Shown here in pieces: positions 10,954-34,821 of a DNA stretch of 64,000 nucleotides. The stretch is from a phage: the sequence record PZ534511.1, one strand, 5' to 3'. The first letter of the stretch is position 1, and each line of letters starts with the position of its first letter. The notes beneath the pieces are model-generated. The model did not search any database. It was not told where the DNA came from and worked only from the letters and a program-made list of their open reading frames with translations. The position numbers were made by a program, and so were the translations under genes.

Positions 10954-10983
10954 TTGACAAAGCTTTGTTGAGTTGGTTATAAT
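10954..10983 (+). promoter_or_regulatory. sigma70-like promoter (TTGACA-18-TATAAT)
   Basis: consensus -35 and -10 hexamers. Confidence 0.6.
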
Positions 10984-11012: not shown

Positions 11013-11126
11013 ATGGCTAAAAAAGCCTTGAAGAAGGCGTACAAGAAAGAGATTGCGCTTGAGCTTAAGAAAAAACACAAGCGTGAAAAGAAACATCATG
11101 AAGATGAAGAGGGGGTGCAACAGTGA
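11013..11126 (+). CDS. 37-aa lysine-rich micro-protein (below ORF-track cut-off)
   Basis: AGGAGGT RBS; MAKKALKKAYKK...; stop overlaps next GTG start. Confidence 0.4.
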   Translation: MAKKALKKAYKKEIALELKKKHKREKKHHEDEEGVQQ

Positions 11127-11473
11127 CACAAGAACGTATCGATTTGGCTAATAAGTTTGTAGATCTCATTTTGCCACGGTTAGTTACTCAACATGCAGAC
11201 GCTATTTCCACTAATCTTGATGGCTTACGCCTAATGCTGAATCGCACAGATGACCCTCGTATTCGGGCTGATTTAGAAGCCTCTGCCAACAAACTGGAAA
11301 AGTTTTTGCAAGTAGACACGCAAGAAGCCTTGCACAAGATTATGGTAGAGGGTCTCTCTAAAGAATTTACCATTAAAGAGCTTAAGGAGCTGATCCACCA
11401 AGAAGAGATGAATATCCGAGTTCAGGCTGTTGCAAGCAGTATGGAAGCGGCTATCGAAAAACTGTTGCAGTAA
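11123..11473 (+). CDS. hypothetical protein
   Basis: ORF, GTG start coupled to upstream micro-ORF. Confidence 0.45.
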   Translation: MTQERIDLANKFVDLILPRLVTQHADAISTNLDGLRLMLNRTDDPRIRADLEASANKLEKFLQVDTQEALHKIMVEGLSKEFTIKELKELIHQEEMNIRVQAVASSMEAAIEKLLQ

Positions 11474-11511: not shown

Positions 11512-12306
11512 ATGGGTCGAGCTAAAGAAACAAAACGCATGCGTGATGAAGCTAAAGAGGCTCGCAAATCTGATCGCCTGCGTAAAGCTGCTGAGAAATT
11601 TGCTGACGAAAGAGAGCACACCGCTCCAGCTCTCCGACCGATGAATAAAAAACAAGAGTATTATCTCCACCTTCTTAAAACTAAACAGTTAGTGATCGCA
11701 ACAGGGCTGTTTGGCACAGGCAAGTCGTTTATGGCTGCAGCTTATGCTGCAGACCTGCTTCGTAAGAACGAGATTGATAGAATTATTGTTTGCCGCCCAA
11801 ATGTTGAATGCGGAAGCCATGGCACGGGGTTCAAACCTGGAGGTGTACTACAGAAAAACGAACCTTTCTTAAAATCAATTTTAGAAACTCTCAAAAAACG
11901 ACTCGGACCTGGTGCTTATAGTACGTTATTGGGAGACGGTCAGACTGGGCGCATCGAGGTGCAAGAGGTTGCAACAATCCGAGGTCGAGATTTCTCTGAT
12001 CGTTGCATCCTCCTAGTTGATGAGTTTCAGTTGACAACCTGTGCAGAGGCTTTGGCAATTGCCACACGGCTTGGTGAGCATGCACAAATGATTTGCATGG
12101 GAGACTTACGACAGAACGATCTCAAAGGCACCTCAGGACTTCAGTGGCTGATCGACTTCGTGACGAGGCACGAAATCAACGGTGTTGGTATCGTAGATTT
12201 TGACGAGCCAGGAGATGTGGTTCGCTCAGGTATTGGTAGACTGTTTGCACTAGGCCTTATGACTGACCGTAATAAAGGTGTGTGGACCCCTGAGGCAGGT
12301 TTATAA
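11512..12306 (+). CDS. phoH: PhoH-like ATPase
   Basis: Walker A GLFGTGKS and PhoH-like IVCRPNVECG. Confidence 0.75.
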   Translation: MGRAKETKRMRDEAKEARKSDRLRKAAEKFADEREHTAPALRPMNKKQEYYLHLLKTKQLVIATGLFGTGKSFMAAAYAADLLRKNEIDRIIVCRPNVECGSHGTGFKPGGVLQKNEPFLKSILETLKKRLGPGAYSTLLGDGQTGRIEVQEVATIRGRDFSDRCILLVDEFQLTTCAEALAIATRLGEHAQMICMGDLRQNDLKGTSGLQWLIDFVTRHEINGVGIVDFDEPGDVVRSGIGRLFALGLMTDRNKGVWTPEAGL

Positions 12307-12347: not shown

Positions 12348-13277
12348 ATGCGTTTAGGAGAACAGTTACCACGAGAAGAAGTGTTTATCAAGAAAGCTAC
12401 TGATAAGCATGGTGACAAGTATAATTACTCCAAAGTTGTATACAAAAACAACACAACACCTGTGAATATAGTGTGCAACAAGTGTGGTACAGTTTTTAGT
12501 AAAACTCCTAAGTCTCACCTTATAGGCGCAGGATGCCCAGATTGTAAGAACAGGGAGTTAAGTGAGAGATTCCGAATGTCCAAGGAGGAGTTTGTAAAAA
12601 GGGCAACAGAACTGCACAAGGGAAAGTATGACTACTCTCTTGTAAAAAGTTTTTCTAACAGGAACGACACTGTTACTATTATTTGCCCCATCCACGGAGA
12701 GTTCAAGCAGACAGTTGCAAATCATTTAGCTGGTGGGTGCTACAAGTGTGGAAAAAGAGCGACAGCTAAAAAGATGAGGAAGTCTAAAGATAGATTCATA
12801 GAGGATGCTACTCAACTACACGGAGACATATATGACTATTCAGAAGTGGAGTATGTGAATACCCACACTCCTGTAACCATTATCTGCAAGTCTTGCGGGT
12901 GTAAGTTTCTTCAACAGCCTGCAAACCACCTGTGCGGTAACGGTTGCCCAGAATGCTCTACTTCAGGATTCAGGCAGAGTACTAAAGAGAGCTGTCTGTA
13001 CCTTCTTGTTGATAATCTTACCATTCCCACGGTTATAAAAGTTGGGGTGACTATCAATCTACAAAGCAGACTATACAACATAAGAAGGAACACAAATTTT
13101 CCTGTTCACGTGCTTAAAGTATTTACTTTCGAACAGGGGTGTGCTACCATGCAGCTTGAAAAATTGGTGCATAAAGTATTTGCAGATCGCAACTGCCACT
13201 TCGAAGGTTTCGACGGGGCAACGGAGTGGTTCTGGTACTCTCATGATATTGTAGAGTTTCTAGAAGACAATTGTTGA
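12348..13277 (+). CDS. protein with three tandem zinc-finger-like repeats and C-terminal T5orf172/GIY-YIG-like domain
   Basis: three ~45 aa repeats (K.GDKY.YS.V.Y...C..CG...H..G.GCP.C) then LYLL..IKVG.T...RL...R......EWF-type domain. Confidence 0.5.
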   Translation: MRLGEQLPREEVFIKKATDKHGDKYNYSKVVYKNNTTPVNIVCNKCGTVFSKTPKSHLIGAGCPDCKNRELSERFRMSKEEFVKRATELHKGKYDYSLVKSFSNRNDTVTIICPIHGEFKQTVANHLAGGCYKCGKRATAKKMRKSKDRFIEDATQLHGDIYDYSEVEYVNTHTPVTIICKSCGCKFLQQPANHLCGNGCPECSTSGFRQSTKESCLYLLVDNLTIPTVIKVGVTINLQSRLYNIRRNTNFPVHVLKVFTFEQGCATMQLEKLVHKVFADRNCHFEGFDGATEWFWYSHDIVEFLEDNC

Positions 13278-13302
13278 CAAACAGATAAGCTTTATGTATT
13301 AT
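13274..13302 (+). promoter_or_regulatory. sigma70-like promoter (TTGACA-17-TATTAT)
   Basis: -35/-10 hexamers; overlaps upstream stop codon. Confidence 0.5.
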
Positions 13303-13332
13303 TACCGGGCAAGACAAGGAGAAGGAGATAGT

Positions 13333-13644
13333 ATGGCTACAATACAAGAGAAACTGAATAAAATATACTGCCTGTTTGTCTATAACGGCGAGACAATTTT
13401 GGCAAATAAAGGATCCAAGAATGTGTGGACCAAGGACAGTGGTGGTAATATAATCAACTTAGCGTTGCTACGTGAGCGCCGACACAGATTCTTTATCGAG
13501 TCTCGAATTATTGAAAGCAGCACCTGCTACAGAACAGGCGATAAAGTAATTGTTGACAATGATACGTGGTATGTGGTAGACTGGCAATCATTGAGCTGTG
13601 ATGCTTCTGACAATCGTAAGTATTCCATAGTGATTGCTAAATAA
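13333..13644 (+). CDS. hypothetical protein
   Basis: ATG with AAGGAG RBS; the 13294 ATG lies inside the promoter. Confidence 0.45.
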   Translation: MATIQEKLNKIYCLFVYNGETILANKGSKNVWTKDSGGNIINLALLRERRHRFFIESRIIESSTCYRTGDKVIVDNDTWYVVDWQSLSCDASDNRKYSIVIAK

Positions 13645-13704
13645 AGGTAAATGTAAATCAGGTTTAAATAAATAGCTTTCAACTTCCAATATTAAGGATT
13701 TCTC

Positions 13705-14754
13705 ATGAATTTAACACCTCGCAGCACCATGGTACACGGCATGAAAGAAAAACAGAACAGTTTCGAACCTATGAGTAATAAAATGTTTGGTATGCCGGGT
13801 GGTATTATGGAAACATACAGCTACCCAACACCTGTTGTTGACCACGTTCTTTATATCGACGATTTGGAAGACCTGCAGGATCATATGTCTCGTCTGCAGA
13901 CGATCCGTATGGCTCAGCCGGAAGAAAGCATTCGGGTGATCATCAATAGCCCTGGGGGGTGCGTGCACATTGCAATGGCTTATCTACAGGCATTCCGCGA
14001 GTCTCAGGCAAGCGTTGTTGCACATGCTGAAGGGATGTGCTGCTCTGCGGGAACAATCTTATGGCTGGGTTGCAAAGAACGCACTGTGGCTCCGGACACA
14101 GAATTTATGTTCCACTACTATCAAGGTGGCACTTATGGTAACGGTGTGAACATGAATACTCAGGTCAGCTACTGGAAAAAACGTTTTGAACGCCTGATTG
14201 AAAAATACTACGGTGGAGTGCTGACAGAAGATGAGATCGCATCCATCACAGCTGGTGGCGAAGTGTGGTTGGACGGAGAAGAGCTGGCAGCACGTACTGG
14301 AGCTATTATTCTGGATGAAGGCAACATACAACGCATCCAGAACGGACAAAAACCTAAAAAGCTTCTGGCAAAAGGTGATGAAGAAGGCGTGTTAGGTGAA
14401 GCAGGTCTTCCGGAGATTCATCAGTGCACATCTTTAGATGAGTTAGTTCATGCTGTTGAATCTGCAAAAGCGGGTGGTTCGAAAGGTGATGTTCACACTG
14501 TGTTCCTGAATCTGCAGATGGAAAGTGGCGAGACCGTCCGAATTGCCCTGGGTGAGATTACTTCAGAAGATCTGCAGAGATTCTCTGTCGTTGAACTTCA
14601 GGATATTCTGTCTCAATTGAAGACTACTCTGAACGGCGGTGAAGAGGTTAAGGTGAAAGATAAGACTCGCAAGCGTCTTGTGGACAATATTATTAAAACA
14701 GCAAAAGAGCTCAATGAAAAAATCCTGGGTGCAGGAATTGTCGAAGAAGCTTAA
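13705..14754 (+). CDS. ClpP-like serine protease (S14 family) with acidic C-terminal extension
   Basis: IINSPGG, GMCCSAGTIL (Ser), FHYYQGG (His) in ClpP-like order. Confidence 0.65.
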   Translation: MNLTPRSTMVHGMKEKQNSFEPMSNKMFGMPGGIMETYSYPTPVVDHVLYIDDLEDLQDHMSRLQTIRMAQPEESIRVIINSPGGCVHIAMAYLQAFRESQASVVAHAEGMCCSAGTILWLGCKERTVAPDTEFMFHYYQGGTYGNGVNMNTQVSYWKKRFERLIEKYYGGVLTEDEIASITAGGEVWLDGEELAARTGAIILDEGNIQRIQNGQKPKKLLAKGDEEGVLGEAGLPEIHQCTSLDELVHAVESAKAGGSKGDVHTVFLNLQMESGETVRIALGEITSEDLQRFSVVELQDILSQLKTTLNGGEEVKVKDKTRKRLVDNIIKTAKELNEKILGAGIVEEA

Positions 14755-14765
14755 ACATTAATTCT

Positions 14766-14790
14766 AAAGCCCTCTTCGGAGGGCTTTTAT
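14766..14790 (+). terminator. rho-independent terminator
   Basis: AAGCCCTC-UUCG-GAGGGCUU hairpin followed by UUUAU. Confidence 0.7.
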
Positions 14791-14805
14791 GATCTGGAGA
14801 TTTGC

Positions 14806-15339
14806 ATGACTTGTGCTAGAAAACCTGATGAACAACGTAACGCCTACGATGAGTATGTGACACCGGAGTGGTGTGCAGAAGGGCTGTATGACCTCATTCC
14901 GTTCCCAGAAGATTGGGCCTATTTGGAGCCTTGCAGAAATAGCGCCTCAGGCGTGTTCTACTCCCGTATGCCGTTAGGATCTGCATGGGGAGAAATCCAA
15001 GAAGGTGTTGACTATCTGAATACAGAATACAACCATGTTGACTGTATTATCACCAACCCACCATACAGCCTGGCTCGTGAGTTTGTAGACAAGGCGTTGA
15101 AAGATGCTGACGTAGTTATTATGCTTTTGCGTCTTAATTTTCTGGAAAGCAAAGCCAGATTTGAATGGTGGCTTGATAATGCACCTACCACTGTGATCAC
15201 AATATCTAAGCGTCCGTCATTCCAATCCAACGGTAGAACGGATGGGCAGGCATATGCCTATTTTGTATGGGACAAGAAAAACCGTCTAGACTTGCCGCCA
15301 TTTATGTGGTTGGCACCACCAGAGGTAGACTTGAAATGA
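14806..15339 (+). CDS. phage Dam-like N6-adenine DNA methyltransferase
   Basis: DEYVTPEW N-terminal motif and ITNPPY catalytic motif. Confidence 0.7.
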   Translation: MTCARKPDEQRNAYDEYVTPEWCAEGLYDLIPFPEDWAYLEPCRNSASGVFYSRMPLGSAWGEIQEGVDYLNTEYNHVDCIITNPPYSLAREFVDKALKDADVVIMLLRLNFLESKARFEWWLDNAPTTVITISKRPSFQSNGRTDGQAYAYFVWDKKNRLDLPPFMWLAPPEVDLK

Positions 15340-15620
15340 AAATGAGTGCTAAGGACAAGTTGCACCAGTTGGCGCTAAAACGTCCTGTAACGCTCCCTGA
15401 CGAGCTTAACTCCATTTATGATGCGATTGTAGGGGAGATACAAAATAAAGCGTTAGCAGGCTTTCTGGGATGCGGATTTTCGATAAATCTACCCTCGCAT
15501 CTCTCAGATTACTTCCCGCATATTGTTGGGGATTTGAGGGCAGGAGGTCTGCAGGTAGATGTTGTTGGCATCTCTCCAGAGAAAAATAACACGGTTGCCT
15601 ACTTGACAGTAACTTGGTAG
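15336..15620 (+). CDS. hypothetical protein
   Basis: start set at ATG overlapping MTase stop. Confidence 0.4.
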   Translation: MKMSAKDKLHQLALKRPVTLPDELNSIYDAIVGEIQNKALAGFLGCGFSINLPSHLSDYFPHIVGDLRAGGLQVDVVGISPEKNNTVAYLTVTW

Positions 15621-26771: not shown

Positions 26772-27982
26772 CCTGAAGAGGCAAACGTGTATAATTCTTG
26801 TGCATTGGAACGTATAAAACCCTGTTCACACTCTCATTCCCAGAGGAGATTTTATGAAGATAGAAATATTTGGTGGGGCTGACAACACTCGTGGCCTGAT
26901 TTACCTTGAATTCGATGAATCATACCTGCCAGAGGTGTTAAATATAGACTCTGTTGCTGAGGCTTTGGGAGTAAACCCTAAAGAACTCCACTCTTGTGCT
27001 GAGATCGATGGTTGGGAAGAGACCATGAATATTGATTTCAGTGAAGTAGAGGATGAACCGCTGGACTGACACACAATTAGCTGCCCGGCTAAAGTGCTGG
27101 AAGCACCTATAACACATCTTTCAACTAAATTTCCTACCACCACAATCACTTACCTCCCACACATGACTGTTTGCTTGTTTAGTGAGCAGTCATGCCTTGA
27201 CATTCTTGCCTATCCTGATAAAATTAAGTTCTTCTCTTTTCTTTTACCGAGTAATTCGGGTTTTCTGTTCTCTTCGGTTTGAAGGGGTATGGAGATACAC
27301 CTGAGTGAACAGGGTGAACAACCGAACCATTGGCTATGGCATTAGCATGGCGAAGCGGACGGGTGACGAAAGAGTGGCCGGAGGACACCAGTCACTGCCA
27401 TATGATATATGGGTGATAACCTGAAGAGTCTGAATAAGTGTTTAAGTACCAGTCAGAGGAAAAGGTGAATGGTAGCCGAAGGGGGAGGGGGGTTTCTTGT
27501 ATCTTTAATTTGTATATTATGTATACACTTGTAAACCAATCTCATCTGAATCTGTTTACCACACAAGGCGGATAGAGACAAATATTACCTATTAAACTTG
27601 AATTATTTATAGAAAATACCACAACACCACTTAAGTCTTTGATTTTACACACAAATCTTACAGATATTCAGCCTCCCTATTTAACATACCTGTAACATAT
27701 TCCATACTCTACCTGTCTGATCAATTTACTCCCACCACATCCCCACATTTTCCTTGTCTGTACTACCCCTGCCCCGCCGGGAGTCCCGTCATATCTGGCT
27801 TTCCAGCAAATATCACACCCACAAATATCATTGCCTGAAGAGGGTTTCATCCCATAACACATGCCTTACCTGAAGAGCGCTTCATACACCACGTAAATTT
27901 TTTAATTGACCTCCCCTTCCCCGCCGGAGAGGTTGGCTTTTCCCACACAGACCTGAAGAGTCAGCCAGAAATATCTGAAGAG
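26772..27982. repeat. six dispersed copies of 9-mer CCTGAAGAG (one TCTGAAGAG)
   Basis: copies at 26772, 27420, 27834, 27869, 27952, 27974 on the same strand. Confidence 0.6.
26854..27069 (+). CDS. hypothetical acidic protein
   Basis: ORF with GGAG RBS. Confidence 0.45.
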   Translation: MKIEIFGGADNTRGLIYLEFDESYLPEVLNIDSVAEALGVNPKELHSCAEIDGWEETMNIDFSEVEDEPLD

Positions 27983-28610
27983 GGTCTAGTTCTGCCCTGT
28001 CATGAGCGGTAGCGACTGGAGTGCTGCCAGGCGGACGAAATGGGAATACTTCTCATTCTTATAATAATTCTCAAATATCGAGGCAGTGAGGCAAATTAAT
28101 AGGTGAGGCCGTTCACACAGTGGCACAACATTTGCAACCTATCTTGTGGGGGTGAATGAGAATACCTATCATTGTGAGAATAGTTATCATTACGGGCAAT
28201 TTAACATAATACCCATTATGCGCACCACTGGCGATACATACAGGGATTGATAACATGAGTTACAGTTTACGCATATAACAATCATATTTCTTACTATTTG
28301 TGTGGGATATAGTTAGCAGCCAATAGATTAGATATTGACCTGCAGACTTCCAACCGTCTAGACGTCTAAACGCCCACACAACAAGGATTATACATACATC
28401 GCTGAATGTAAACAGGGCCGCAAAAATGCTACCATACCAGTTTGTAAATTTTTCATGCAGCACTTGACAAAGAGGAGAAAAACTTGTCTGACACACCGGA
28501 CACAATATGGCACAATAACGACTGTTATTATTTCATGTTTCACTGTTCACGTATAGATTGTTCCCGCATAGACTGTTTACACCTTGACAGTTTACACAGA
28601 TATGATAAGC

Positions 28611-28860
28611 CATGACATTCGTTTGCATGAAAACAATTAGCAAGTTAACAATTAACAAGTTAATAATATATGACATAATATAAAAGCAGGGCAACTATTA
28701 GCAGATCTATAGTTGCCTTGCTTGTTATGTCATGATTAACTAAATACAAGGCAACTATGATCTGATTAATAGTTTGCAGACAAACTATCACGGGGGTGAT
28801 GGTTACTGCTTTTATATTATGTCGCGACTCCGTCGCGCCATGCCATTCGTTTGCATAGTT
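28611..28860. repeat. cluster of inverted and direct repeats (candidate origin or regulatory site)
   Basis: 18-mer CATGMCATTCGTTTGCAT x2; 21-bp inverted pair at 28668/28807; AAGGCAACTAT and its complement x4. Confidence 0.55.
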
Positions 28861-29470
28861 GCCTTATTGTTACAGGTAAAACAATTACATTATTAATTAT
28901 TTCTTATCTTTCTGTTAGTCATCTAATGATTCCAGTTAGTATAGTAACGTACAGTAAACATTAGACGACTAAAGATTTCTCTGCTTATGATAACTTGCCG
29001 TGACAATTTCGGACTGTTTACGAAAAATGTTGACACCTGAGCTGATTTATGTTATGCAATTTAAACGAATAATTATTTTATGCAGGTATTGACTATTCCG
29101 TTATTCTATGGTTGGAATAAATACTTAGCAAGCTATAGAATGGTGAGCGTACGTAAATTCTGAAATCTGGCGGCTATAGTTATACTCGATTTTTCGCATA
29201 GGACACGCTTTCGATGTTGTGTAAGTGTATGACTTATAAGAATTTTTATTTGTTGACAAGATATTGAAGATATGCATCAGGTTAAAATTTATGCAATAGC
29301 GGCATTACGTGCAATTTTGGGAGAGAAAACGGGCAAAAATGGCCTTGCTACCACACAATGAAAAATTATGCAATAGTTATTTTCCATGTATATTTGTACA
29401 GTGTGTGGGATTAATAGCTAGTCAATTATTCCACTTGCCAGGTAGGGCCGTTTATGGTAGGAGAAGAGCA

Positions 29471-29498
29471 GACAAAAAGAAAGGGGCCTAAGCCCCTT
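29471..29498 (-). terminator. rho-independent terminator for the minus-strand gene block
   Basis: GGGGC-uuag-GCCCC hairpin followed by U-run on minus strand, just after stop of 29517 gene. Confidence 0.55.
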
Positions 29499-29516
29499 GA
29501 TAATTCAGTTAAAAAA

Positions 29517-33149: not shown

Positions 33150-33374
33150 GGTTTTAACTCCTATCTATCCGGTTAATGATTGGGGGCCGCCCCCCTGACA
33201 CGTCCTATTATCCATATTGTAGGGCTTGATGCAAGTACTTCTTTAAAAATTTTTTAAGCGCCTTGGGGGCCGCTGTAGCGCCAAAATAATAAAGGCCATG
33301 CAACCGCATAGCCTTTATGTGATTATATCGCTGCAGGCCCTGCCATGGGCCTTATTTTGCATCATTTGCTGGAA

Positions 33375-33674
33375 TTATTCAGAGAAAACATCGTTCACAA
33401 TAGCGATCACAATGCCGCCCACCTTGTCACGGTCAACAATGCACAAATCACCATAGATCATGTGGTAGTCTGGATGATCTTTCACGGAATAGTCAATGAG
33501 TGTCTTCTTATCGTCCAGCTTTTTGACTTCCATGGTCATTGTAATGAATTGATCGTTAAATGCACTATTGCGGAAGATCATTACCTGGCCGCCTTGACAT
33601 CCAGTGATCTCAACTTCCACGCCGTCTACGATCTGACCATCAAAGAAATAAAGATTATTGGCGGGTATAAACAT
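33375..33674 (-). CDS. hypothetical protein
   Basis: ATG with AGGAG RBS. Confidence 0.45.
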   Translation of the reverse strand: MFIPANNLYFFDGQIVDGVEVEITGCQGGQVMIFRNSAFNDQFITMTMEVKKLDDKKTLIDYSVKDHPDYHMIYGDLCIVDRDKVGGIVIAIVNDVFSE

Positions 33675-33718
33675 GATCATTGCTCCTTTTTGCACTGATT
33701 ATTTTAACAGGGTTTAAA

Positions 33719-33763
33719 TTTACTTTATTGATGGTCCTGGAGTCAAGACCATCTAAAAATAAA
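33719..33763. repeat. 45-bp palindromic element, copy 1 of 3
   Basis: TTTACTTTATTGATGGTCCTGGAGTCAAGACCATCTAAAAATAAA. Confidence 0.7.
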
Positions 33764-33765
33764 TT

Positions 33766-33966
33766 TTACAGGCCTACAATCTCTTTGATTCGTTTAACTG
33801 CTGCCTCAGCGCCTTGGGGGTAGAAATTATGATAACCAATCACGCGGGTAATACTGATCGCCACCTGATGATCTTCATAATACCCCTTGAATATTTCTTG
33901 ACCATCAACCAGCACAGCAATTTTTTCTTCTTTTTTGAAGTTAATAACGCGGATATTGTTGCTCAT
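33766..33966 (-). CDS. hypothetical protein
   Basis: ATG with AAAGGAGAAAC RBS. Confidence 0.4.
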   Translation of the reverse strand: MSNNIRVINFKKEEKIAVLVDGQEIFKGYYEDHQVAISITRVIGYHNFYPQGAEAAVKRIKEIVGL

Positions 33967-34110
33967 TTTGTTTCTCCTTTTGGAACTTTGTCTATGTGGT
34001 GGGGGAGTGTCTCCCCGTTGATTGTTATTATCCATATTCTGGACCGGATTGCAACACCCCGGAAGAAAAATTTTTTGAAAAGTTAGGCCCCCAGGGATCG
34101 GGGGCCGTTA

Positions 34111-34230
34111 TCAGGTGCGTACAGCGATAAAATACATCCCTACGCCTAACAATATTTCAAGGGCGATGATCTCCAGCCATACCATAACACGGCGCGCCTT
34201 ATCGGTGCGGGGCTTATCCTTGGGTGTCAT
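34111..34230 (-). CDS. 39-aa hydrophobic micro-protein (below ORF-track cut-off)
   Basis: AGGAGGAAAGGGGGG RBS; TM-like C-terminus. Confidence 0.35.
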   Translation of the reverse strand: MTPKDKPRTDKARRVMVWLEIIALEILLGVGMYFIAVRT

Positions 34231-34250
34231 CGTCTCCCCCTTTCCTCCTG

Positions 34251-34472
34251 TTAGTAGTGACGTGGTTTGCAATGGCCCCCAGGAGTATTATCACCACGCA
34301 CATTACAAGAAAAATTATCTCTGTCGTTGTTCGATCCATTGTTATAAAATTCCTTAAGATCAGGCCTGAAAATAAAGCTTTCATTATTGAATCCATCCCG
34401 CCAGGCGGCTGGCCTCAAATCTTCACTAAATGGATTAATTAACGTGGTATTATTTAAACGGCTGGCCCACAT
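34251..34472 (-). CDS. hypothetical protein (frame ambiguous with overlapping 34214-34339 TM peptide ORF)
   Basis: two overlapping ORFs in different frames; cannot decide by eye. Confidence 0.25.
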   Translation of the reverse strand: MWASRLNNTTLINPFSEDLRPAAWRDGFNNESFIFRPDLKEFYNNGSNNDRDNFSCNVRGDNTPGGHCKPRHY

Positions 34473-34821
34473 ATTTTCTATTCCTCTCAAATAAGCGATC
34501 CGCCTCAGTTAAACAAATCTCATGGGCGTGATCTCTGGTTTTAGCTTCATCGAAAACCTGTTGTGCAAGGCTGCAACGTAGGGAGACTGGAAGATCACTA
34601 TAATAGGCGTTGACAAACGTTTGAGCGTCGTACAGGTCTGAAAATACTTTACCCTTTCTATTATTCCCCTTGTCAACAATTGCAAGGATAACCAATACAA
34701 TAGTTGCAACCACCCCCAGGAAAATAGATATAATAAACCATAAAAAGGCGGATCTTCCCATCTTGCCAGCGATCCAGGCGTTAAACAAGGCAACCAATAC
34801 AGCCAAAATAATAAATTCCAT
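34450..34821 (-). CDS. membrane protein
   Basis: two hydrophobic helices; ATG with AAGAGG RBS. Confidence 0.45.
   Translation of the reverse strand: MEFIILAVLVALFNAWIAGKMGRSAFLWFIISIFLGVVATIVLVILAIVDKGNNRKGKVFSDLYDAQTFVNAYYSDLPVSLRCSLAQQVFDEAKTRDHAHEICLTEADRLFERNRKYVGQPFK

Follow-up and report, generated by a model that had tools for sequence, protein, structure and literature searches.

The gene at positions 13705-14754 (+) of a 64,000-nucleotide stretch of phage DNA (PZ534511.1; the whole stretch is referred to below as the window) encodes a ClpP-like serine protease, which we interpret as a non-structural, accessory ClpP-fold serine peptidase of a stand-alone phage family whose benefit to the phage is conditional or quantitative rather than essential. 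We place the probability of this interpretation at about 0.72. The analysis corrects two common assumptions, namely that ClpP homologs in phages act as prohead proteases and that they are "ATP-dependent" partners of ClpX or ClpA, and it draws attention to a distinct ClpP-like family that resides in the replication and nucleotide-metabolism regions of many large lytic phages, often beside PhoH.

Identity and Family Assignment

The open reading frame (ORF) is genuine, specifying 349 amino acids followed by a stop codon, and its product is identical at 347 of 349 positions to bas54_0171, the "ClpP-like protease" of phage MaxBurger (Bas54). In the rV5 gene table the same gene appears as gp122, a "ClpP (ATP-dependent) protease subunit" of 349 amino acids, and on the strength of these two correspondences we assign the window to Vequintavirus. 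A megablast search with positions 13000-15500 returned 122 phage records, almost all from rV5-type Vequintavirus coliphages (navn, JES2013, FFH2, MaxBurger/Bas54 and others), with 116 matching at near full length and 90-99% identity. The gene is already known and annotated in more than 100 near-identical genomes, and relative to its Vequintavirus orthologs the window protease carries no distinguishing feature.

Profile searches matched residues 24-345 to positions 4-322 of the 323-position PHROG 5410 profile ("ATP-dependent protease", E = 4.9e-155) and also returned PHROG 1827 (E = 2.6e-40), and Pfam CLP_protease (PF00574) was passed with 47.7 bits against a gathering cutoff of 20.2 (E = 2.1e-12). 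Together with the Foldseek matches described below, these scores lie well outside what chance would produce. All NCBIfam ClpP equivalog and subfamily models, including TIGR00493, failed, with 33-39 bits against cutoffs of 228-308. Scores for head maturation were also below threshold in NF045542, the model of ClpP-related head-maturation proteases (60.4 bits, E = 2e-16, cutoff 120), and in the head-maturation model for fusions with the major capsid protein (MCP; 52 bits, cutoff 475); the head-maturation families PHROG 1684, 94, 2976 and 133 matched at 1e-14 to 1e-22. Among the S49 models, TIGR00706 (SppA) reached 14.4 bits against a cutoff of 155 and the SDH-type models 15.7-23.9 bits, below cutoff. 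The preliminary description of this gene had proposed a profile search to separate S14 from S49, and the result is S14-like: CLP_protease was passed, the S49 models failed and the active-site histidine, His137, is invariant as in S14. Given the NCBIfam scores, we regard the enzyme as S14-like with Ser-His chemistry and not as a member of S49.

Relatives were found by tblastn in 1114 phage records. Compared all against all by BLAST, ten stand-alone proteins, two cellular ClpPs and four ClpP-like head proteases encoded next to portal genes resolved into three clean blocks; the stand-alone proteins scored 46-285 bits among themselves, compared with 17-57 bits against the head proteases and 21-54 bits against cellular ClpP. 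By these sequence comparisons, the protease belongs to a distinct stand-alone family of phage ClpP-like proteins (PHROG 5410/1827) whose members include rV5 gp122, bas54_0171, PVP-SE1 gp151, ICP1 gp211 and T5.042 / BF23 ORF45, together with proteins of Pakpuna-, Otago-, Barba-, KVP40-like and N4-like phages. With these relatives (T5.042, ICP1 gp211 and others) the window protease has in common its genomic niche, the invariant Ser, His and NSPGG, and the coexistence of a separate head protease. Cellular ClpP (MEROPS S14) has the same fold and handle helix as the window protease, and its oxyanion motif, Ser and His come in the same order, but identity is only ~20%, Glu replaces Asp171, the docking-pocket residues are changed, the axial-loop motif is absent and a C-terminal domain has been added. 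The ClpP-related head-maturation proteases (D3 orf5, cdtI orf5, JuJu gp4) likewise share the ClpP fold and Ser/His, and further resemble it in that the third position is Glu ("ExW"), the ClpX pocket is missing and a C-terminal extension is often present; the window protease nevertheless falls in a separate BLAST block, lies outside the portal-MCP interval and is not essential.

Fold and Active Site

The preliminary description had read three motifs in ClpP order from the sequence, and all three are present: IINSPGG at residues 79-85 (nt 13939-13959), GMCCSAGTIL starting at residue 110 with the nucleophile at Ser114, and FHYYQGG starting at residue 136 with His137 (codon positions in Table 1). 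An AlphaFold2 (AF2) model computed from 25 homologs predicts a complete ClpP fold with confidence. Foldseek searches with this model returned ClpP structures of many species (E~1e-9, target-normalised template-modelling (TM) scores of 0.65-0.74 over ~170 columns), and phmmer against the PDB returned ClpP chains only. Ahead of the core, residues ~25-43 carry a conserved F-G-x-P-G...Y-P motif that, in an alignment with E. coli ClpP, is unlike the ClpP axial loop.

The oxyanion hole is formed by NSPGG and Ala115, and Gly85, which aligns with Gly68 of E. coli ClpP, is invariant along with Ser114 and His137 in all sequences compared. The position of Asp171 is more variable, being D in cellular ClpP, E in the head-maturation enzymes and the window protein, and any of E, D and Q across the stand-alone family; Q occupies it in 21 of 28 aligned sequences, a set that is biased by Seunavirus-like sequences. 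The notion that the third catalytic residue had been lost was dropped, the window protein having Glu just as the head-maturation enzymes do. Because Glu186 stands here and E stands at the same position in the head enzymes, a Ser-His-Glu triad is plausible from the alignment. The variability of this position (E, D or Q) is also what could be cited for a ClpR-like protein devoid of catalytic activity that would serve a structural or regulatory purpose, such as that of a decoy poisoning the ClpP rings of the host; the invariance of Ser, His and the oxyanion Gly across members of ~20-30% identity is, however, a pattern typical of selection for catalysis, and we give this explanation almost no credence.

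Evidence Concerning Head Maturation

That the window protease is not the head-maturation enzyme, as the preliminary description had supposed, is well supported: relatives have a separate, essential XkdF-type head protease, the ClpP-like gene of Bas54 can be disrupted, the protein is absent from the rV5 and CB7 virion lists, and the ICP1, T5-like and KVP40-like phages that encode a homolog also have a head protease, known or predicted. In navn, a 97%-identical relative, the head module runs in the order TerL, portal, a protein of 138-139 amino acids, a protein of 325 amino acids, decoration protein and MCP. The 138-139-residue protein matches Pfam Peptidase_S78_2 (PF14550, XkdF-type) with 62.9 bits against a cutoff of 24, as well as "head maturation protease" PHROGs; its gene is annotated as prohead protease in Bas54 and CB7, and mass spectrometry (MS) of CB7 virions detects its product. 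Owing to its position between portal and scaffold, its essentiality in Bas54 and its detection in CB7 virions, this XkdF-type enzyme is the candidate for the actual head-maturation protease in phages of this type. Both it (rV5 gp63, bas54_0006, CB7_5) and the window protein are phage serine proteases encoded in the same genome, but they are unrelated in fold and family.

In HIDEN-SEQ transposon data for Bas54 (10.1101/2025.11.20.689424), 28 of the 44 TA sites of bas54_0171 (64%) were hit, with mean counts of 127-149, and the gene was called "Intermediate", a class that according to the authors is viable while not fully tolerated; insertions confined to a single half of this gene would, again according to the authors, have earned it an essential call. 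The portal, prohead protease (bas54_0006), scaffold, decoration and MCP genes showed 0-4.5% TA saturation and were called "Essential", and the PhoH (94%), small ORF and methyltransferase genes showed 93-97% and were called "Non-essential" (10.1101/2025.11.20.689424). Disruption of the ClpP-like gene is thus shown to leave plaque formation possible. In the MS analysis of rV5 virions, gp122 carries no "MS evidence" flag, and the table of CB7 virion proteins does not include CB7_184. In ICP1, the late capsid operon contains the gene for a predicted head protease, gp125, and the ClpP-like gp211 is encoded elsewhere; T5-like phages have an experimentally established prohead protease alongside the T5.042 homolog; and in a KVP40-like phage the ClpP-like homolog coexists with a T4-type gp21.

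A prohead protease whose gene lies at a distance from the head module, and whose extension is scaffold-like or capsid-targeting, would account for the distant homology to NF045542 and to PHROG 1684/94/2976/133, and C-terminal scaffold or targeting domains are common in such proteases (cdtI orf5, JuJu gp4). The preliminary description had named clear homology to prohead protease/scaffold fusions and processing in the virion as the observations that would overturn its view; distant homology to ClpP-related head proteases was indeed found, at half the NF045542 cutoff, and evidence from virions or head processing was not. Against this explanation stand the phage's own essential protease beside portal and scaffold, the disruptability of the ClpP-like gene, its omission from the rV5 and CB7 virion proteomes, the sub-threshold NF045542 score, a C-terminal domain unlike either the scaffold candidate or the XkdF-like protein, the coexistence of homologs with T5-type prohead protease and T4-type gp21, and the peak of the ICP1 block ending at gp211 in mid-infection rather than late. 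It is already largely refuted, and we consider it highly improbable.

The annotation of the XkdF-type gene is inconsistent, being a 190-residue "conserved hypothetical protein" that overlaps the portal in rV5, a "hypothetical protein" in navn (34318-34737) and a "prohead protease" in Bas54 and CB7. The best PHROG match of its product is phrog_1530, which is labelled "DNA methyltransferase" and is probably a mislabelled fusion family. Additionally, the 325-residue scaffold candidate (navn 33338-34318; rV5 gp62, CB7_6, bas54_0007) was detected by MS in mature rV5 and CB7 virions; since a scaffold would be expected to be expelled or degraded, its presence there is unusual, and some of this protein may stay in the particle or serve another structural purpose.

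Unfoldase Docking and Proposed Role

E. coli ClpP docks the IGF/IGL loops of ClpX and ClpA in a pocket lined by hydrophobic residues. By sequence alignment these positions map to R77, I79, E99, H107, E109, T127 and A129 of the window protein, so that relative to E. coli ClpP the changes are Y60R, F82E, I90H, M92E and F112T, with a 5-residue deletion in helix B. Across the aligned family the positions read R, I/V, E, H, E, T and S/A and no N-terminal axial-loop motif is present, and the same loss of the pocket is seen in the head-maturation enzymes, which work without unfoldases. With the ClpX/ClpA docking residues replaced, the "ATP-dependent" label appears doubtful. The replaced pocket, as in the unfoldase-free head-maturation enzymes, leads us to infer a self-compartmentalised peptidase that lacks canonical docking to a host unfoldase. 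Having retained the handle helix, the protease would be assembled into ClpP-like rings and would cleave cytoplasmic proteins or peptides, whether host proteins or short-lived phage proteins; host ClpX or ClpA would probably remain undocked during cleavage, the hydrophobic pocket residues now being charged or polar. The preliminary description had suggested host or phage regulatory proteins as possible targets, which is likewise conjectural.

A canonical ClpP-type subunit, which is what the database label "ATP-dependent Clp protease proteolytic subunit" suggests, could instead cooperate with the ClpX or ClpA of the host, forming a tetradecamer of its own or a phage heptamer stacked on a host ClpP heptamer in the manner of ClpP1/ClpP2, and so redirect host ATP-dependent proteolysis. 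The full fold with the handle helix, which mediates ring-ring contact, and the above-threshold CLP_protease match are in keeping with this; the best PDB sequence matches include P. aeruginosa ClpP2, a subunit that depends on forming hetero-complexes, and in a hetero-tetradecamer the loss of the pocket from the phage ring would leave ClpX free to bind the host ring. The docking positions are, however, charged or polar across the whole family, the N-terminal gating motif is absent, the NCBIfam ClpP models fail by a wide margin (33-39 bits against 228-308) and cellular ClpP is as distant as the head proteases. We therefore judge a canonical subunit unlikely and retain the accessory peptidase as the preferred interpretation.

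Several observations weigh against that preference. The hidden Markov model scores slightly favor the head-maturation models (60 bits) over the cellular ClpP models (33-39 bits); the "Intermediate" call for bas54_0171 (64% compared with 93-97% for its neighbors) means that loss of the gene is not entirely neutral; the docking-pocket residues were mapped by sequence alignment rather than on a model of the complex; and BF23 ORF45 was detected at trace level (3 peptides) in virion preparations, with an intensity of 2.8e7 compared with 6.9e8 for the prohead protease, in a paper that calls the function of this homolog "currently unknown".

The BF23 detection, at low intensity in purified virions, would also fit a low-copy protease that is packaged in the virion and injected with the DNA, or that processes internal proteins, and that acts at the start of the next infection. 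The same BF23 preparation contained dihydrofolate reductase (DHFR), which suggests carry-over of abundant cytoplasmic proteins, and reports on rV5 and CB7 virions do not include the protein. Furthermore, the C-terminal domain of the window protein has no counterpart in BF23 ORF45, for which reason the result may not transfer. Packaging is in our estimation very unlikely.

Literature searches on stand-alone phage ClpP, T5.042 and Pakpunavirus timing yielded no functional study; the ClpP-like gene is not mentioned in the CRISPRi-ART paper or in another transposon paper, and the phi92 structure paper mentions no protease. As the Bas54 transposon mutants are viable, the question of substrates for the accessory peptidase is directly testable.

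The C-Terminal Domain

The preliminary description had noted an acidic C-terminal extension. The extension exists (residues ~216-349), but it is not notably acidic: it contains 26 D+E and 19 K+R, and its isoelectric point (5.06) compares with 4.78 for the core. Beyond a variable linker, it comprises a domain of ~100 amino acids with the signature TL..DF..F(N/S)..EL..IL ... R..L, which is conserved across Vequintavirinae, including Acinetobacter and Pectobacterium phages; family members from T5-, Pakpuna-, Otago-, Barba- and KVP40-type phages lack the domain, and the extension of ICP1 gp211 is different. As judged from these sequences, the domain is private to this lineage. An exhaustive profile search with it returned the same family only (5 representatives), leaving no other domain context from which a function could be borrowed.

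The suggestion that the extension might be scaffold-like did not hold up. BLASTP and hhalign comparisons with the scaffold candidate and the XkdF-like protein found no similarity (probability <0.1%), and the domain is predicted to adopt a compact alpha/beta fold with no long coiled coil, besides not being unusually acidic. This flexibly tethered, Vequintavirinae-specific domain might serve as a substrate- or partner-recognition module, possibly one associated with nucleic acids.

Genomic Position Across Phages

The window covers the nucleotide-metabolism and replication arm together with a block of small early genes, and no head or tail module was found within its 64,000 nt. The surroundings given in the preliminary description were confirmed, with nucleotide-metabolism genes upstream, a DNA methyltransferase downstream and no capsid genes in the window. 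Upstream of the protease lie an anaerobic ribonucleotide reductase (RNR; NrdD), its radical-SAM (S-adenosylmethionine) activase (NrdG) and then PhoH, which is separated from the protease by two ORFs, an endonuclease-like one of the T5orf172 type and a small conserved one. In relatives, the head module is ~35 kb away on the strand opposite to the protease. Coordinates are collected in Table 1.

Table 1. Positions in the window of the protease gene, its predicted parts and the neighboring features.
Feature	Position	Strand	Basis and remarks
ClpP-like serine protease gene	13705..14754	+	ORF, PF00574, PHROG 5410; equals rV5 gp122 / bas54_0171
Shine-Dalgarno AAGGA	13694..13698	+	6-nt spacing to ATG; read from the sequence directly
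N-terminal residues 1-43, predicted disordered	13705..13833	+	predicted local distance difference test (pLDDT) <50
ClpP-fold catalytic core, residues 44-215, including handle helix 147-169	13834..14349	+	AF2 pLDDT ~90, Foldseek, phmmer
NSPGG oxyanion-hole motif, residues 81-85	13945..13959	+	invariant in alignments of relatives
Catalytic Ser114 codon	14044..14046	+	aligns with E. coli ClpP Ser97; kept in 28/28 and 16/16
Catalytic His137 codon	14113..14115	+	aligns with E. coli ClpP His122; kept in 28/28 and 16/16
Glu186 codon, possible third triad residue	14260..14262	+	at the ClpP Asp171 position
Variable linker, residues 216-243, partly disordered	14350..14433	+	pLDDT <50 at 223-237; poorly conserved
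C-terminal domain, residues 244-343	14434..14733	+	predicted helix, beta-hairpin and helix-extended-helix-like pair of long helices
PhoH-like ATPase gene	11512..12306	+	PF02562 1.7e-42; phrog_170; recurrent upstream neighbor of stand-alone ClpP-like genes
Small conserved gene in the PhoH-protease interval	13333..13644	+	phrog_5456; rV5 gp121, bas54_0172; function unassigned
DNA N6-adenine methyltransferase-like gene	14806..15339	+	phrog_799 7.7e-66; weak Dam/EcoRI_methylase Pfam matches
Sigma-70-like promoter match TTGACA-18-TAGACT with TG	13553..13582	+	consensus match only; ~120 nt upstream
Sigma-70-like promoter match TTGACA-17-TATTAT	13274-13302	+	consensus match, 11/12

Fifteen loci were sampled by hand, representing some ten lineages among myo-, sipho- and podoviruses. 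In none of the 15 does the stand-alone ClpP-like gene lie between portal and MCP, compared with a portal-protease-(scaffold)-MCP order for all four ClpP-like head proteases that were fetched. PhoH is found just upstream on the same strand in about nine of the 15 loci, overlapping the start of the protease in Otagovirus and, in Barbavirus, separated from it by 54 nt. In Vequintavirinae and Barbavirus the protease is followed by a DNA methyltransferase, and the methyltransferase gene has this same downstream position in ABPH49, PVP-SE1 and Barbavirus. Genes for RNR, deoxynucleoside monophosphate (dNMP) kinase, DHFR or ligase accompany the protease at nearly all of the loci, and at the remaining ones the neighbors are genes for RNR, dNMP kinase, DHFR, dCMP deaminase, ligase or lysis; the T5.042 homolog of T5-like phages adjoins the dNMP kinase gene, and in a KVP40-like T4-type phage the ClpP-like gene sits between frd and uvsX. 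Descent of these large lytic phages from common ancestors may account for part of the linkage to PhoH.

Few phage genes without an assigned role are as widespread as PhoH and this protease. The string PhoH, ClpP-like protease and, in some phages, methyltransferase might constitute a functional module that degrades specific host proteins of the nucleoid, RNA metabolism or defense during takeover, with the protease served by the PhoH ATPase or by its own C-terminal domain; as part of the same idea, the helix-extended-helix-like domain of Vequintavirinae would act on nucleic-acid-bound proteins. If true, this would be a new kind of virus-encoded regulated protease. The difference in transposon tolerance in Bas54 (PhoH 94%, protease 64%) argues weakly against an obligate partnership with PhoH, and we regard such a module as a speculative and quite unlikely proposal.

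Expression

The sigma-70-like promoter matches upstream of the protease, together with the placement of gp122 in the rV5 transcription unit 82-163, which is separate from the late unit 27-81, fit early or middle expression. The protease is also on the strand opposite the late morphogenesis unit. For the late-promoter motif TggTAaAAtA of the rV5 paper, the only upstream match, with 1 mismatch, lies inside the preceding ORF at 13443 and is uninformative. In ICP1, the nucleotide-metabolism block gp176-gp211 peaks at 12 min and the capsid operon containing gp125 is late; by analogy with this block, which ends at gp211, the window protease would be made early to middle in infection along with its neighbors. 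A sigma-70 promoter match identical to the consensus (TTGACA-18-TATAAT) precedes the string that contains PhoH and a phrog_7650 gene, at 10954-10983 (+).

Other Features of the Window

The endonuclease-like ORF at 12348-13277 (+) encodes a protein of 309 amino acids in which DUF4379 zinc-finger repeats are combined with a T5orf172 domain (PHROG 681, "endonuclease"). In rV5 and Bas54, PhoH and the phrog_5456 gene are only ~100 nt apart and this ORF does not stand between them, and it therefore resembles an inserted, free-standing homing endonuclease whose presence varies among Vequintaviruses.

Two small genes flank the string of PhoH, protease and methyltransferase: phrog_7650 at 11123-11473 (+; 116 amino acids, bas54_0174) and phrog_12158 at 15336-15620 (+; 94 amino acids, bas54_0169). 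Insertion read counts in Bas54 were 7.2/16.1 for the phrog_7650 ortholog and 1.8/0.5 for the phrog_12158 ortholog, compared with 127-290 for the protease, PhoH and methyltransferase, and these two genes may outweigh the annotated enzymes for fitness.

GenBank records MG065646-MG065682 include 19 unannotated "Campylobacter phage" entries (host C. jejuni) that are ~97% identical to E. coli rV5-like phages across this region; their host labels or sample purity look doubtful.

Finally, an ORF-poor, low-GC zone (~27100-29500, GC 0.378) coincides with a switch of GC skew and gene orientation, and a search of it gave no Rfam match at E<=0.1 and no tRNAs. The zone carries nested inverted repeats and a 20-nt direct repeat, and the segment 28609-28872 stands out within it. 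The inverted repeats have perfect 18-nt arms at 28672-28689/28806-28823 and 19-nt arms at 28741-28759/28854-28872. The zone is probably the ~2-kb intergenic region of Bas54 that took no transposon insertions, and it could be an origin or a regulatory region.

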